Part shown: positions 11,904 through 64,000 of the stretch, one piece after another
Layout: every line of letters begins with the position of its first letter
Numbering within the stretch: the stretch's first letter is position 1
DNA from: a virus
IMG/VR virus record: IMGVR_UViG_3300025154_000052
Span: 73,578 to 137,577 of that record
DNA length: 64,000 bases
Direction: 5' to 3' (one strand)
Translations under genes and position numbers: made by a program
The notes under the pieces: generated by a model
What the model saw: the letters and a program-made list of their open reading frames with translations, nothing else
Told to the model about the DNA's origin: nothing
Databases searched by the model: none

Positions 11904-12100
11904 GTAGGCACCTTTGGACCGACGTGGACGGCGACGAGGGGTATGTTGAGATCATCGGCAGGTCGATCTGGCTGTGGCTTGCGAACGAGGAGGATGACGC
12001 TGAGGCATTCCACCGACTGACCCCCAAGACTGCCCGACAGGTGGCGCGGTATCTGATCGAGGCTGCGAGTTCGATCGATGGAAAGGGCGGAGATGAGTGA
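11900..12100 (+). CDS. hypothetical protein
   Basis: GGAGGT RBS, ATGA overlap. Confidence 0.65.
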   Translation: MSRHLWTDVDGDEGYVEIIGRSIWLWLANEEDDAEAFHRLTPKTARQVARYLIEAASSIDGKGGDE

Positions 12101-35268: not shown

Positions 35269-36369
35269 TTACTTGGAGGGGAACTTCTCAGCCATGCGGT
35301 CCACGATCTCCTGCTTGTGCGCGTTTAACAGATGGGAGTAGCGCATGGTCATCTGGAGGGACTTGTGACCCAGAATAGCAGCCACGTCGGCGAGGCTGGC
35401 GCCGGACATGATCAGGTAGCTGGCGGCTGTGTGTCTGAGCGTGTGCCGGGTGACGCCCTGTAACCCAGTCTCGCGGATGCATGCGTCCCAAGCTCGCTTT
35501 AGGTCCAGGGGTTTACAGGTGTCGATCGTACTAGGGAAGAGCAGATCCACACCGAGTAGCCGGTGATGGTTCGTCCAGTCTCGGATTGCGCCCAGCGCAG
35601 GTGCAGCTAGGGGGACGTAGCGAGGTTCGCTGTTCTTAGTCGTCCCCTCGCGCAGTACCAGGTGACGGTGCTCGATATCCACCTGTTCCCAGCGCAGGCC
35701 CATGATCTCGGACAGCCGGCAACCGGTGTAGATGAGCAGGACTGCTACCGGGTACATAGCCGGGTTCTGACGCTTCGCCGCCTCGAGTAACTGTGCCCGC
35801 TCGGAGTCGGTCAAAAACCGGGTTCGGCCTCGAGGTTCACGCTGCTTTCGGACCTTGACCATCGGGTTGGCATCCATCCATCCCCAGTCCTTGACTGCAG
35901 CGGTGAACGCGGTACTGAGTGCAGCCAGGTACCGGTTGACCGTGGCAGGTGTCCGGACCTGACCGCGGGGAGTCAGTCCTCGTGCAAGATCGTCTCGAGC
36001 CTGGGTAAGCATGGTGGCAGCGACATCTGGCAACGCTACATCTCCCAGTTGCGCCTTCCACCAGAAGAGCTCTCGCTCAGTGTCCCGGGCGCTCTTCGGC
36101 CTATTGGGAAGCACCTCGTCTATATACCGGTCGATCAGGTCTGCCACGGTGCGACTCTGGGCCACAACATCGGGTCTGAGCCTCTCTTCTCTAATGACCG
36201 CCTTGGTCGTGTCCTGCCAGTATTTAGCGTCCTGGAGGCGGTCGAAGGTTTTCACCTGGGGTGCATACCCCTTGATCCGGACTTCGACCCGGTAGACCTT
36301 CCGTCCGGTAGGGTAGACTCGCTCGATTATCCCCGGTGGGAGTCGCTTACCCTGCTTGGTAGTGCCCAT
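35269..36369 (-). CDS. int: tyrosine integrase
   Basis: TGCRLSEI, TTKN, HTLRH, LGHKS, TMRYSH catalytic set. Confidence 0.95.
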   Translation of the reverse strand: MGTTKQGKRLPPGIIERVYPTGRKVYRVEVRIKGYAPQVKTFDRLQDAKYWQDTTKAVIREERLRPDVVAQSRTVADLIDRYIDEVLPNRPKSARDTERELFWWKAQLGDVALPDVAATMLTQARDDLARGLTPRGQVRTPATVNRYLAALSTAFTAAVKDWGWMDANPMVKVRKQREPRGRTRFLTDSERAQLLEAAKRQNPAMYPVAVLLIYTGCRLSEIMGLRWEQVDIEHRHLVLREGTTKNSEPRYVPLAAPALGAIRDWTNHHRLLGVDLLFPSTIDTCKPLDLKRAWDACIRETGLQGVTRHTLRHTAASYLIMSGASLADVAAILGHKSLQMTMRYSHLLNAHKQEIVDRMAEKFPSK

Positions 36370-36388: not shown

Positions 36389-36630
36389 TGCTACGGATTC
36401 GCGACCGGAACGAAAAAAGGGGCTGCACCAGTCAGGCACAACCCCTTGATTTCGTTGAAAGCCGAAGGCCGGATTCGAACCGGCGACCTGCTGATTACGA
36501 ATCGGGAAAGCACACTGGACTATTACAGCACTTGTTTCGATCTTTCGCAGGCTTACAAGTGAGTCGCGTTAGCGTATTGCTACTGATTACTGTCCCGAAT
36601 CAGGTGTCACTGCTACGGGAAATGCTACGG
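36389..36630. mobile_element. attP-like site: 3' half of tRNA-Thr(CGT) core with arm repeats and IHF site
   Basis: Minus strand 36503-36460 GATTCGTAATCAGCAGGTCGCCGGTTCGAATCCGGCCTTCGGCT without the tRNA 5' half; TGCTAC(G/T)G x4; WATCAANNNNTTR match at 36439-36451. Confidence 0.85.
36413..36447 (-). terminator. terminator downstream of the tRNA fragment
   Basis: AGGGGTTG...CAGCCCCT followed by a T run. Confidence 0.65.
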
Positions 36631-47880: not shown

Positions 47881-47924
47881 CATTAAAATAGTTGTTGACT
47901 GTATATCTAGGGTCATGGTACAGT
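47881..47924 (+). promoter_or_regulatory. promoter of the RNA island
   Basis: CATTAAAATA-N4-TTGACT-N18-TACAGT with extended -10 TG. Confidence 0.7.
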
Positions 47925-47930
47925 CTGGTA

Positions 47931-48254
47931 AAGACTGGGCGGTTGATCCAGTGACTGAGTTGAGTGGCGTTCCTGCTGAGTTGTACATCCGGAGTGGAAG
48001 CAGCGCTGTCCTGAGTGGAACCAGTACCGTCAGCCCAGTCTTTTATTCTTTCGGCACCCGGGTGAAACTCCCGGCAGAGTAGCGCTCCCGACTCTCTGTG
48101 CATGAGTCATCGGGAGGCGGTATGGTAACCGGCGCCCTGTAACCTCCGGGGCAAAGCAACCGACCTCAGATTGAGTGGTGGCGCACTCTCTGAGCCCATG
48201 CGGGCGTGAAGGCTCGACGAGACAGAGCCAGGCAGCCGGGAAAGACGAGCATAC
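47931..48254 (+). ncRNA. large structured ncRNA, possibly GOLLD-like
   Basis: No convincing ORF on this strand; 10-bp helix AAGACTGGGC/GCCCAGTCTT; GAAA-loop hairpins; located next to tRNAs. Confidence 0.45.
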
Positions 48255-48914
48255 GGGGCTGTAGTTCAGTGGGGGAACGTCTGGCCTGCAGTATACAAGA
48301 CGTTTGTATGTGGAGCGCACATAGCCTGACAGAGATTGGCACCAGAGGATAGCGGTTCAAGCAGAAAAGTACTTCAGTGGCGCAAGAAGAGTCAGAGTAC
48401 ATCACATCTGATAGCTATGATGGCTACTTCAGGAAACTGTATGCTAAGGTGTGTGCTCAATGTGGAGCAACGTTTTATTTGCCAAGGCACATACTTAATG
48501 GTGCAAAGTTTTGTAGCAAAAAGTGCCATGCTAAGACGAAGCAACGCCGCGAGACTCTCACATGCTCACAATGTGGAAAGCAATTCGTCAAACTAACAGG
48601 CAAGAAAAAGAATTCAAGACATGGTTTTTACTTTTGTACCAGAGCATGCAAGGATTTGGCTCAGAGAATTGGCGGGATTGAGGAAATACGGCCAGGACAA
48701 TACAAAAACGGAAAGAGTTATTACAGGGAACGTGCACTCCGGGAATACGGGCAGAAATGTTGTCAATGTGGATACGACAAGTATTCTGCAATGTTAGACG
48801 TTGATCATATCGATAATAACCGTGAACATAATTCACTGGAAAATCTGCAAGTATTATGCGTCTGGTGCCATGCTTTAAAAACGAGAAAGACGCCAGTTCA
48901 CGACCGCTAGTCCA
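48255..48914 (+). pseudogene. tRNA-like element interrupted in the anticodon loop and T-loop
   Basis: GGGGCTG-TA-GTTC/GAAC D arm; TCTGG/CCAGA stem; AGCGG-TTCAA...CCGCT T arm split by the HNH ORF. Confidence 0.55.
48377..48910 (+). CDS. HNH homing-endonuclease-like protein
   Basis: Two CxxC...FCS/TxxC modules plus CCQC...VDHIDNNREHNSLENLQVLCVWCH; AT-rich relative to flanks. Confidence 0.88.
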   Translation: MAQEESEYITSDSYDGYFRKLYAKVCAQCGATFYLPRHILNGAKFCSKKCHAKTKQRRETLTCSQCGKQFVKLTGKKKNSRHGFYFCTRACKDLAQRIGGIEEIRPGQYKNGKSYYRERALREYGQKCCQCGYDKYSAMLDVDHIDNNREHNSLENLQVLCVWCHALKTRKTPVHDR

Positions 48915-49114
48915 AAATGGCGCCGACTCCATTTGAATCCTCACTGGCTCGGCTTTCCGCCCTTCGTCAGTGCCGTTGGCTTGACCAACGGAGACATGCA
49001 CTAGGCTTAAGGCTGCGTGCGGCCGCATGTCTGCAAATTACCGCAGATAGGCACTATGGACTGGCCTCCTTGTGTTGAATGTTAGCCTGGCGGGCTGGAA
49101 AAGGCCCGCGTTAT

Positions 49115-49198
49115 GGGATCGTAGCTCAATCGGATAGAGCAACTACACGGCGCGCCAAGGTGTAGCAAGTGCCAGTTCGATCCTGGCCGATTCCACCA
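49115..49198 (+). tRNA. tRNA-like RNA with Ala identity and non-canonical anticodon arm
   Basis: GGGATCG/CGATTCC with G3:U70, A73, CCA; canonical D and T arms; 6-bp stem with 11-nt loop. Confidence 0.8.
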
Positions 49199-49241
49199 GA
49201 GACGGTCATCCAAGACTCCCACGTCGTTAAATACTTGGAGT

Positions 49242-49360
49242 CTTCGGCATGTGCGTGAGGCATTTACGGGCATGCCTTCAGGAATCCCGAACCTGAAGTA
49301 TTAGCGCAGCCCGAAGGGGACGGACAGGGGAAGCTGCTCGTTCGATCCGAGCGCCGATGT
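49242..49360 (+). ncRNA. tRNA-like shell with expanded centre
   Basis: CTTCGGC/GCCGATG acceptor-like stem; GCTCG-TTCGATC-CGAGC T arm. Confidence 0.45.
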
Positions 49361-49485
49361 AAGGTGTCTGAAACTGCCTTATCTGTGTAGGGCGTGACCC
49401 GGCACGTTAACCGGGAGTCTTTCATGAGGCGCCCATACTACGGGCTTAATGGCGCTGCTTGTTGAACAGCGCCGCCTTATCTTTC

Positions 49486-49558
49486 ACCGCTGCAGCGTGG
49501 CTGGATCGCACGCCGGGACGCGCAACCGGAAGCCTGGGTTTGATTCTCAGCGGCGGTC
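49486..49558 (+). pseudogene. degenerate tRNA (nominal GCG anticodon)
   Basis: 73-nt cloverleaf; T-loop TTTGATT; no U33, no CCA. Confidence 0.5.
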
Positions 49559-49582
49559 GTTAACGTGAACATGGAGGCTGAA

Positions 49583-50083
49583 ATGCAGTATCAACTTGGT
49601 GACATGGTCCAGTGGAGTAGTCAGGCTGCCGGTCATGTGAAGGTAAAGACCGGTGAAGCTCTAGCAGTCCTGCCCGCCAAGGTCGCTGTCCATAAGGTCG
49701 TCAAGCCGATATTGGCGGATGGTCAACATACCAGCGAGATACCGGGCAAGGCGCGCCCGAAGCTTTACTGGCCTCGAGTGTCGGCACTGTCTCTCGTGAG
49801 TCGTCCGGAGTTGTCGGTTGAGGAAGATGTTGATGACGAGTCGGACGTTGACTCAGTGACCCTGGCCACGTTCAAGCACAAGTCCGGCAGCAAGAAGCGA
49901 ATGACCGGAACCGTGTTGACCAGCGGTGTGAGCGCTGAGACTGCCGCGTACCAATTCGCCCGCACTCACCGGATCTGTTTCAACACGAATTCCGAGGGCG
50001 ATGTCTTCATCGAGATCCCCTCGTTGCACCGCAAGCCGCGTCTGTACTGTCGGCGCGGATGTCAGGTCAGTTACTCGATGTGA
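49583..50083 (+). CDS. hypothetical protein
   Basis: GGAGG RBS, start MQYQLGD. Confidence 0.65.
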   Translation: MQYQLGDMVQWSSQAAGHVKVKTGEALAVLPAKVAVHKVVKPILADGQHTSEIPGKARPKLYWPRVSALSLVSRPELSVEEDVDDESDVDSVTLATFKHKSGSKKRMTGTVLTSGVSAETAAYQFARTHRICFNTNSEGDVFIEIPSLHRKPRLYCRRGCQVSYSM

Positions 50084-50171
50084 TCCTGTTCGATTGGCTA
50101 CACGAGTCCTGCACATGCAGCCGGTAAGAGTCCGGAAGTTCAGTGCCGTTGAACACGACGGCGCTACCTTT

Positions 50172-50242
50172 GGTCCCATAGTCTAGTGGCAAGACACCGC
50201 TCTTTCACGGCGGAAGCCAGGGTTCAATTCCCTGTGGGATCA
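50172..50242 (+). tRNA. tRNA-Glu(TTC)
   Basis: Canonical cloverleaf, loop CTTTCAC; CCA not encoded. Confidence 0.93.
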
Positions 50243-50247
50243 TTCAC

Positions 50248-50439
50248 ATGGAGATCGACGTGGATAAAGAAAGCGACTTCCTCAAGTCCATTCTGTTGAC
50301 CAGTCCCGAGTCTGGTAAGGCACTCCATGTCACGGATGTGAGAGGCAAAGAGGCAGGTCTTGACCATCTCGAGATCACAACCGAGTCTGACGACAAGATG
50401 GAGCGGTGGAAATACTCCATCAAGGTCGAAGAGGTCTAA
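50248..50439 (+). CDS. hypothetical protein
   Basis: 63 aa between the two tRNAs. Confidence 0.55.
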   Translation: MEIDVDKESDFLKSILLTSPESGKALHVTDVRGKEAGLDHLEITTESDDKMERWKYSIKVEEV

Positions 50440-50440
50440 C

Positions 50441-50512
50441 GCTTCCATAGCTCAGTGGTAGAGCAGCCGGCTTTTAACCGGCAGGTCGTAGGTTCAAATC
50501 CTACTGGGGGCA
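50441..50512 (+). tRNA. tRNA-Lys(TTT)
   Basis: Canonical cloverleaf, loop CTTTTAA; CCA not encoded. Confidence 0.95.
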
Positions 50513-50529
50513 TTCCATTTTACAGTTTC

Positions 50530-50885
50530 GGGGGCGAAATAGATTCGACGGGGGAACGGTAGATCAGGGCAGCGTGCAGAGGTGGGTCGCCTCGTTAAAC
50601 AGGCTCAAAACCATAGTCGCAAACAACACCGACTACTACGCCGACTACGACCGTCAGGCCGCTTAGTGGGCTGTTCGCCTGGTTCAGACTGCGGGGCCAG
50701 GTGGGCATAATGCCAGCAGTCAAAACCCTCGTGGAGCGCAGGACTAAACGAGGGAATATCACCTGCTAGCCCGGCAGACTGTGTGCCTGCAGATCTAGGG
50801 CGAAACTGATCAGAGCACTACGCACGTAGACACCTTGAGTCGAGTTCTTTCGGACCCGATGGGCGGTACATCGGCGCCTCCACCA
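50530..50885 (+). ncRNA. ssrA: tmRNA; tag (A)ANNTDYYADYDRQAA*
   Basis: GGGGGCG/CGCCTCC-ACCA with G3:U70; GATTCGAC; resume context ATAGTC-GCA at 50619. Confidence 0.95.
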
Positions 50886-50907
50886 TTTCTGGCAAGCCCA
50901 GTTGACA

Positions 50908-50950
50908 AAAAGGGGCGATTCTATCGCAGAGTCGCCCCTTTTTCTTTTCT
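50908..50950. terminator. intrinsic terminator, possibly bidirectional
   Basis: AAAAAGGGGCGATTCT...AGAGTCGCCCCTTTTT. Confidence 0.85.
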
Positions 50951-57321: not shown

Positions 57322-57765
57322 CTACTCGAGCGTCAGGTCCTGTTCGGCCCAGGCCATCCGCTCCCACTCGTCCTGGTACGACTCAAACGAGCCGTTATCA
57401 TTGGCATAAGCCAGCAGGAGCGCCGCCCATTCGGACGAATACTCGCGCTGGCAAGAGACGTAACCAGCGCCGCTATATCGCACGCCGTCAAGGATGTAGC
57501 CGTGGTGGTGCGTACTGTCGTCCATCCCGTCGAACGATGTGGACTCGAATTGCCCTGCTACCGCCTCCACGTCCTTTGTCCGCGGGCCATCCGTCCAAGC
57601 GACATCAACAGTCGAGCCCATGGAGTATGACCGCGACCGGACGCTGAACTTGATACCAGGGAATGCGACCTTCAGCGCTGACCGGATTTTCTTGGCCGTC
57701 TCAGCGGGTGTCTCGTAGATTGTCTCCATCTGTCGCCTGGTGCTCATGTTGATGATGGTCGCCAT
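57322..57765 (-). CDS. LPD29-like (large polyvalent protein-associated) domain protein
   Basis: ETAKKIRSALKVAFPGIKFSVRS...VDVAWTDGP; promoter TTGACA-N17-TATATT upstream. Confidence 0.7.
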   Translation of the reverse strand: MATIINMSTRRQMETIYETPAETAKKIRSALKVAFPGIKFSVRSRSYSMGSTVDVAWTDGPRTKDVEAVAGQFESTSFDGMDDSTHHHGYILDGVRYSGAGYVSCQREYSSEWAALLLAYANDNGSFESYQDEWERMAWAEQDLTLE

Positions 57766-57904
57766 GTCCTACTCTCCCGTGATTTGTTTTTGCCAGCGTC
57801 TATGTACCTAATATAAGGCAGGCTTTGATTACTGTCAATAGTAGAAATGACAATGCTTCAAATTATTTTTAAGGGAATAAGAGTAGGAGGGAGGAAGAAG
57901 GCTA

Positions 57905-63271: not shown

Positions 63272-64000
63272 ATGTGCATGCACAGATTGAGCAAGTCAGC
63301 ACCACGGGTAATTGACGCAGATTATCTGGTCGCTTCGCCTGTCCGATGTGTCGCCACGTTGAAGGACGCCAGGGAAGCATTGGGTGGGCGAACGGTGGGC
63401 CGGCAAGGATGGGTGCTGGTTACAGAGCGAGACGGTGACGTCGTGTCTGTGGAGCGTCTTGCGGCCGGTCTATCCTACGTCGATGCAGAGTTGCTGGCTG
63501 AGAAAGCCGTTGCGCCCGATTCCGCTGTTACCCTGGCCTACGCCGTAGAGGGTAACGGCAAGGGGACGATCTACAAGCGTGCGGTCACGCTCGACTACAC
63601 CGACATCCTTGCAAGGTTGAACTCGGGTATCGCTGATATCGACGTCATGATGGCCGCTGCGGGGTTCACCACGTCGATTCAGAAGGCGGATGACATCTTC
63701 CCCCAGGACGAGCAAACCGAGCGGCTTGTGGCGAAACTGGCGAAGTTGGCGAAGGGCACGGTAGACGCCACCGTGGCTGAACTCGTGGAGATTGCGGAGT
63801 CTACTGACTGGGTAGCGCTGGGCGAAGTCGAACTCGGGAAGCAGATCACAGCCATCGCCGATGGGTTCACCAAGGCAGGAGGCGCCTTCGCTGGGTTACT
63901 CGCCTCTCCACTCCTGCAGCACGGAATGCGCGTGGTCAAGGCTGTACGAGCCTGGGACGCGAAGAAGTATGAATGGGGGCCAGGTGGGAGCAAGGTCCCC
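63272..64000 (+). CDS. partial ORF running off the window (possible head-morphogenesis gene)
   Basis: AGGAGG RBS, ATG at 63272, open to 64000; promoter TTGCGG-N17-TACGAT. Confidence 0.65.
   Translation, partial: MCMHRLSKSAPRVIDADYLVASPVRCVATLKDAREALGGRTVGRQGWVLVTERDGDVVSVERLAAGLSYVDAELLAEKAVAPDSAVTLAYAVEGNGKGTIYKRAVTLDYTDILARLNSGIADIDVMMAAAGFTTSIQKADDIFPQDEQTERLVAKLAKLAKGTVDATVAELVEIAESTDWVALGEVELGKQITAIADGFTKAGGAFAGLLASPLLQHGMRVVKAVRAWDAKKYEWGPGGSKVP

Follow-up and report, generated by a model that had tools for sequence, protein, structure and literature searches.

Does the tRNA-derived gene at 49115–49198 (+) of the IMGVR_UViG_3300025154_000052 stretch, whose presence we confirmed together with its A73 and encoded CCA, still read codons, and if it does not, is it the relic of a tRNA or an RNA that selection has kept? 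The record is that of a groundwater phage, 137.6 kb in length, and the window that we analysed, 64,000 nucleotides in full, is its last 64 kb. Although the record is classed as linear, a gene of a related contig (L117, 4848–6404) matched both of its ends (63392–64000 of the window and 10–810 of the record), and since one gene spans the two ends the genome is probably complete and circularly permuted. The sequence with the element is present, without differences, in four DNA runs from one groundwater study; only DNA runs were listed for it, with no RNA run among them. In Logan contigs from three samples of one groundwater study the 3-kb island showed 0 differences over 3051 bases. Identical copies in three samples exclude an accident of assembly, though the window may itself derive from these samples.

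Read from its 5' end, the element consists of GGGATCG TA GCTC AATCGGATA GAGC A(A) CTACAC GGCGCGCCAAG GTGTAG (C)AAGT GCCAG TTCGATC CTGGC CGATTCC A CCA (Table 1). The Rfam tRNA model (RF00005) aligned end to end with 49115–49195 (model positions 1–71) at 46.1 bits, against a gathering cut-off of 29 bits, with E-values of 5.6e-8 in 3 kb and 6e-10 in the genome, so that a cloverleaf with all four arms is recognised above the cut-off. The full cloverleaf had a computed energy of -27.0 kcal/mol, against a minimum free energy (MFE) of -27.1 kcal/mol. Twenty of the 21 stem pairs are intact, 27:43 being the sole non-standard pair that the Rfam model reported, and every base that we checked for tertiary contacts is also intact (U8, A9, A14, A15/U48, G18 G19, A21 and G53:C61); the variable region is 4–5 nt long and ends G46...U48. 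Infernal placed the anticodon arm in a register with a 5-bp stem that includes an A27·C43 mismatch and with 15 nt replacing the 7-nt loop. These 15 nt resolve into two additional pairs and an 11-nt loop (GGCGCGCCAAG), and the arm folded alone gave a 6-bp stem with an 11-nt loop at -6.8 kcal/mol. An earlier note on this DNA had described the acceptor end with G3:U70, A73 and an encoded CCA, together with canonical D and T arms, and both the sequence and the Rfam match agree with it; its description of a 6-bp stem with an 11-nt loop that lacks U33 was likewise borne out by the isolated-arm fold and the sequence. Genes of this sort are overlooked by default tRNA finders and by filtered Rfam scans: ARAGORN at its default settings did not call the element, and a 64-kb gathering run of Rfam filtered it out, so that a 46-bit match was missed. 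We rejected a coding role for the region, the minus-strand ORF of 63 aa that runs across the element having no family match.

Table 1. Features of the element, of the RNA island around it and of the integrase region (positions are those of the window).
Feature	Position	Strand	Remarks
Whole element	49115–49198	+	tRNA-Ala-derived, non-decoding; Rfam RF00005 46.1 bits, sequence, cloverleaf energy equal to MFE
Acceptor 5' strand GGGATCG	49115–49121	+	7-bp stem with 49188–49194 (CGATTCC); G3:U70, G2:C71
D arm GCTC-AATCGGATA-GAGC	49124–49140	+	G18 G19, A20; tRNA-Arg type, not the G20 of tRNA-Ala
Anticodon arm	49143–49165	+	6-bp stem CTACAC/GTGTAG around 11-nt loop GGCGCGCCAAG
Loop palindrome GGCGCGCC	49149–49156	+	8 nt, GC only; self-pairing (kissing) potential
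T arm GCCAG-TTCGATC-CTGGC	49171–49187	+	Canonical
Discriminator A73 and encoded CCA	49195–49198	+	Read from the sequence
RNA island	47895–50943	+	Promoter-like site to strong terminator; between CHAP endolysin and terminase
Promoter-like site	47895–47924		5' boundary of island
HNH endonuclease gene	48377–48910		In island; 205 bases upstream of element
Lone T arm GCTCG-TTCGATC-CGAGC	49335–49351		Perfect; tRNA-like remnant
Acceptor and T-arm remnant, 73 nt	49486–49558		7-bp acceptor stem; D and anticodon arms poor; loop ACGCGCA, C33
tRNA-Glu(UUC)	50172–50242		In island; encoded CCA absent
tRNA-Lys(UUU)	50441–50512		In island; encoded CCA absent
tmRNA, one-piece, 356 nt	50530–50885		132 bits; encoded CCA; 1.3 kb downstream of element; missed by ARAGORN
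phrog_11941 ORF			In island
Strong terminator	50907–50943		3' boundary of island
Tyrosine integrase	35269–36369	-	PF00589, 105 bits
tRNA-Thr(CGU)-like sequence	36460–36529	-	Good 3' half, poor 5' half; adjoins integrase, then terminator

AlaRS does not need the anticodon in order to charge a tRNA, and the bases at the acceptor end of the element point to alanine. Among 324 distinct tRNAs from the phage loci that we fetched, G3:U70 was present in 8 of the 11 tRNA-Ala and in only 2 of the 313 others, one of the two non-Ala cases probably being a register error. Since the pair is nearly exclusive to tRNA-Ala, the G3:U70 of the element is no chance wobble, and the count upholds the alanine identity set that had earlier been placed at this end of the molecule. 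A73 and G2:C71 of the same set are also present; at the position of the minor determinant G20 the element has A20. When we scanned GTDB genomes with the exact acceptor and A73-CCA we found one true tRNA, a bona fide tRNA-Ala(UGC) that matches the element exactly in acceptor stem, A73 and CCA and lies in an unrelated, phage-like tRNA array on a Polyangiaceae MAG contig with zero proteins in common with this phage. The 3' half of the element ranked closest to Ala in a tRNA sample that was biased. The D-arm 21-mer GTAGCTCAATCGGATAGAGCA occurred in 116 IMG/VR stretches, all of them in other tRNAs and almost all in tRNA-Arg. The loop as placed by Infernal has A32-C33-GGC at its 5' end and U38 at its 3' end, and the anticodon loop of E. 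coli tRNA-Ala(GGC) is AUGGCAU; after allowing for the choice of register and anticodon, the resemblance between the two is only suggestive. The element is of tRNA origin and its acceptor is of the alanine type, and as an Arg-type D arm is joined to this acceptor it is no plain copy of a standard tRNA-Ala; the best description is a derivative of tRNA-Ala whose D arm is unusual.

The island in which the element lies retains only two canonical tRNAs, tRNA-Glu and tRNA-Lys, and several tRNA-like pieces in different states of preservation. The most upstream of these (~48246–48376) has the acceptor strand GGGGCTG, a D arm, the anticodon stem TCTGG/CCAGA, the T stem AGCGG and the T loop TTCAAGC; its anticodon stem holds ~57 nt starting CCTGCAG. 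The HNH ORF begins directly after this T loop and has CCGCT at its end, and we saw no 3' acceptor strand for the piece and no match to an Rfam family. Its layout suggests a tRNA gene, possibly one for Ala (UGC), that a homing endonuclease has disrupted, by analogy with SegB; this homing endonuclease is encoded within the tRNA cluster of T4 and recognises a T-arm motif (PMC2330249). The remnant at 49486–49558 matched only the mascRNA model, and that weakly (21 bits). Downstream of the promoter-like site, an ORF-free and hairpin-rich sequence of ~300 nt (47930–48245) leads up to the first tRNA-like piece; no Rfam family matched there at E-values up to 10, and for the island ORF at 49565–50083 we found no homologues other than itself. 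The phage encodes no SmpB, FemAB, AlaRS, RNA ligase, RtcB or PTH2, the last of these (PF01981) being absent from the 137.6-kb record at E-values up to 1. Outside the window, at 57690–57803 of the record, a 201-aa frame had a weak match to a nucleotidyltransferase of the PolyA_pol/CCA-adding type (21.8 bits, or 23.9 bits with its neighbours, against a cut-off of 23); judged by this match it may be a phage tRNA nucleotidyltransferase.

Whether the element can decode turns on its loop. The only U among the 15 nt in the place of the anticodon loop is the last base, and the element is therefore without U33; in three registers tried, no contiguous deletion restored a loop with U33 and a purine at position 37 (R37). 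The element thus has neither the 7-nt anticodon loop nor the U33 and purine 37 of a tRNA, and with its anticodon loop rebuilt by two extra pairs into an 11-nt loop without U33 it cannot read codons, as the earlier note had concluded from the lack of a decodable anticodon; no register that we tried supplied a U33. A way around this would be the excision of an 8-nt (or 6-nt) insert from the loop, which would leave a working tRNA-Ala(GGC) or Leu(CAA). With introns allowed ARAGORN did call Leu(CAA) with a 6-nt intron and C33, and cutting 8 nt after GGC would give ACGGCGU with the Ala anticodon correctly placed, but U33 is missing from every possible product and 8 nt is far too small for a group I intron or a bulge-helix-bulge substrate. 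No intron family of Rfam matched at the 6–8-nt insert, and the element does not class as an intron-containing tRNA. A long variable arm is expected of bacterial tRNA-Leu, and the Leu(CAA) call, with C33 and no such arm, is a forced fit. The host of the phage is moreover bacterial, judged by the tmRNA and the CHAP endolysin, and we know of no protein-based tRNA splicing in bacteria. We regard a tRNA restored by excision as extremely improbable. An enlarged loop could also be that of an expanded-anticodon decoder, a tRNA that shifts frame or reads a multi-base codon. The known frameshift suppressor tRNAs have 8–10-nt loops with U33, however, and the loop of the element, at 11–15 nt and with neither U33 nor a purine-37 context, is not that of a quadruplet-reading tRNA; nor does the phage have a matching recoding site or a Pth2 gene, and the chance that the element is such a decoder is next to negligible.

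The locus might instead act as DNA, the element being a recombination or endonuclease site (an attP or an HNH target) and not an RNA gene. In favour of this the phage has an integrase, the HNH gene lies close upstream of the element (Table 1), and T4 SegB recognises tRNA genes. Against it, the integrase is 13 kb away and has a tRNA-Thr 3' half of its own beside it, and an attP needs just the 3' part of a tRNA, whereas the element is a complete cloverleaf with CCA. We rejected the element as an attP tRNA fragment, as it has no adjacent integrase and is not limited to a 3' part, and any role of this kind at the DNA level is very improbable. The integrase, the tRNA-Thr(CGU) 3' half and the terminator together are likely a typical attP; with an integrase and a likely attP the phage is temperate, and a host tRNA-Thr gene is its probable site of integration.

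There remain a relic and an RNA under selection. The most likely reading, to which we give about an even chance, is that the element is a recently disabled tRNA-Ala, without a selected role, that represents one stage in the decay of a temperate phage's tRNA array. If the RNA island is transcribed, the element would fold into the L-shape, be cut by RNase P and end in its encoded CCA. By the established rules for AlaRS, the host enzyme would probably alanylate it through G3:U70 and A73, and the alanylated RNA would be bound by EF-Tu and then rejected at the ribosome, as we propose, for want of an anticodon. Unless some factor uses the RNA, the element would be a harmless or mildly costly by-product. 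We infer transcription, processing and charging, as well as the absence of selection. The graded decay of the neighbouring tRNA-like pieces favours the disabled tRNA-Ala, with further support from the mobile endonuclease that sits within the tRNA array and from the lack, in the phage, of any SmpB, FemAB, AlaRS, RNA ligase, RtcB or PTH2 to make use of the RNA. The absence of tRNA and tmRNA genes from the DNA upstream of the terminase in the nearest phages fetched points the same way. Other features do not fit it well. All of the damage is in the loop, and to pass from a canonical loop to the present one requires, as a minimum, that sequence be inserted and U33 be lost; as a rough estimate, damage confined to the loop would be unlikely under uniform neutral change (p 0.003–0.02) unless it arose in one complex event. 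The new arm is a clean helix, its loop is palindromic (p ~0.015), CCA is encoded in the element and the tmRNA and not in tRNA-Glu or tRNA-Lys, and an Arg-type D arm is joined to an Ala-type acceptor. It also counts against a relic that useless DNA is usually deleted fast from phage genomes.

The main alternative, a tentative one to which we give some credence, is that the element is a selected, non-decoding, alanine-accepting tRNA mimic, in which the rebuilt arm keeps the RNA off the decoding pathway. It could work by tying up a host factor specific for the acceptor/T-arm half of tRNAs, e.g., a toxin or defence enzyme directed at the CCA end or the acceptor stem, or as a non-ribosomal donor of alanine, and two molecules could pair by their GGCGCGCC loops. 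Consistent with selection, the tRNA body is intact and the changes are limited to the loop, and the element combines the alanine identity set with an encoded CCA, which the tRNA-Glu and tRNA-Lys of the phage lack. Its gene lies inside a promoter-to-terminator RNA unit beside the Lys and Glu tRNAs and the tmRNA, tRNA-shaped genes with enlarged anticodon arms are found in other IMG/VR contigs, and the loop palindrome would allow two loops to pair at a computed -20.9 kcal/mol. On the other hand, the element is a single occurrence with no relative found, and hence offers no evidence of conservation; the phage encodes no partner protein and PTH2 is absent. GGCGCGCC is at its expected frequency in the genome and (GC)n slippage is possible, a stoichiometric sponge would be poor against a catalytic enzyme, and the neighbouring elements look decayed. 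We consider unlikely the more elaborate proposal of an alanine-chargeable mimic that forms kissing-loop dimers and soaks up a host factor for the acceptor or CCA end, or supplies alanine for non-ribosomal use, as part of a translation-shielding island together with tRNA-Lys, tRNA-Glu and the tmRNA. The earlier note had held that the preserved charging elements argue against simple decay; this argument is weak, since a freshly disabled tRNA-Ala would retain exactly those elements and look alike. Of the roles that it had suggested, a decoy for anticodon nucleases is unlikely, the loop being unlike any anticodon loop that they target. A role like that of tmRNA is also unlikely, given the canonical D arm and anticodon stem, the lack of an mRNA-like part and a phage without SmpB. 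That of an aminoacyl donor is not supported; the phage has no FemAB-type aminoacyl-transferase.

The palindrome in the loop deserves separate comment. The probability of an 8-nt palindrome within an 11-mer is 0.013–0.016; (GC)n runs are inherently palindromic, and that of the element could stem from GC slippage. GGCGCGCC was observed in 7 copies in the genome against 6.3 expected, and on this count we rejected an engineered AscI linker and restriction avoidance as its source. We also rejected the loop as an antisense seed: the genome has a single complement to the 11-mer, with a chance probability of ~0.2, and it falls at a gene start, on the non-coding strand.

Set beside known systems, the element belongs with the aberrant tRNA genes that occur in phage tRNA clusters and do not decode, and its loop-only remodelling is unusually clean. 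Like the pseudogenes and aberrant tRNAs of such clusters it is tRNA-derived and non-decoding and lies beside decayed remnants and a homing-endonuclease gene; it differs from them in that its damage is confined to the loop and spares the acceptor, D arm, T arm, tertiary bases and CCA, and in that an ordered extension of the helix, capped by a palindromic loop, stands in place of the original loop. The RNA species I and II of T4 are longer than the element and are not complete cloverleaves with alanine identity, and to our knowledge they have no function that is known. They are stable small RNAs encoded in the tRNA gene region of T4 (gene map, PMC2330249). They share with the element that they are encoded by non-decoding small RNA genes among phage tRNAs, presumably matured by the tRNA-processing machinery. 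The tRNA-like domain of tmRNA (RF00023) shares G3:U70, A73 and an encoded CCA with the element, and is chargeable with alanine without an anticodon; in contrast to tmRNA, the element is 84 nt long, with a full D arm and anticodon stem, and has no mRNA-like frame and no pseudoknots, and its best Rfam family is tRNA and not tmRNA. Phage tRNAs with substitutions in the anticodon loop escape tRNA-targeting defences (van den Berg et al. 2023, PMC10264068). The element is likewise a phage tRNA gene that deviates in the anticodon loop, but those tRNAs keep a 7-nt loop and decode, which the element cannot do. The dimerisation initiation site of HIV-1 has a hairpin loop containing GCGCGC, and both it and the element thus present a GC-only, self-complementary hexamer or octamer in a hairpin loop, with the potential for loop-loop pairing; the two molecules are unrelated, and this likeness may reflect GC slippage. 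The YrlA family of Y RNA-like tRNA mimics (RF02553) gave no match to the element at E-values up to 10.

Should the element be merely a disabled tRNA-Ala, it would be an ordinary by-product of the turnover of a tRNA array and a clean example of loop-only inactivation. Were selection to maintain it, aminoacylation and decoding would be uncoupled in a natural RNA, and a non-decoding tRNA look-alike would join the known answers of phages to tRNA-targeting defences.

Our search for relatives of the element found no phage carrying it in IMG/VR, JGI metagenomes, GTDB genomes or cultured phages, and exact scans of IMG/VR gave 0 matches to the anticodon arm and 0 matches to the T arm plus acceptor. A sequence look-up likewise turned up no look-alike in any other genome. 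The nearest phages that we fetched had 52–54% terminase identity; upstream of their terminases there was no tRNA or tmRNA within up to 4.5 kb, and the DNA there had no similarity to this phage. Closer terminase relatives (61–63% identity) were P0002 and P0003, encoded on contigs of 7.2 kb and 137 kb, and no close relative was found among cultured phages. A search with the 5'-end pattern of the tmRNA returned only permuted tmRNAs of alpha- and beta-proteobacteria and no relatives, and in the literature we found no paper on phage tRNA-like genes with greatly enlarged loops.

Enlarged anticodon arms were, in themselves, seen elsewhere, in tRNA-shaped genes on other IMG/VR contigs (L145, L149, L150, L160 and L163; L155; L157). 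One type, with two sequence variants, was seen on five contigs, and the gene on L157 has a 6-bp stem and a 10-nt loop. Genes on five further contigs (L143, L148, L151, L153 and L161) resemble tRNA-Tyr genes with introns and may belong to eukaryotic viruses. The unrelated phage-like array on the Polyangiaceae MAG contig (C131, locus L142, 8109–14027) comprises 17 tRNA genes, and beside its tRNAs, at 11972–12099, there is a match to the YrlA (Y RNA-like) model at 58.8 bits, against a cut-off of 69.
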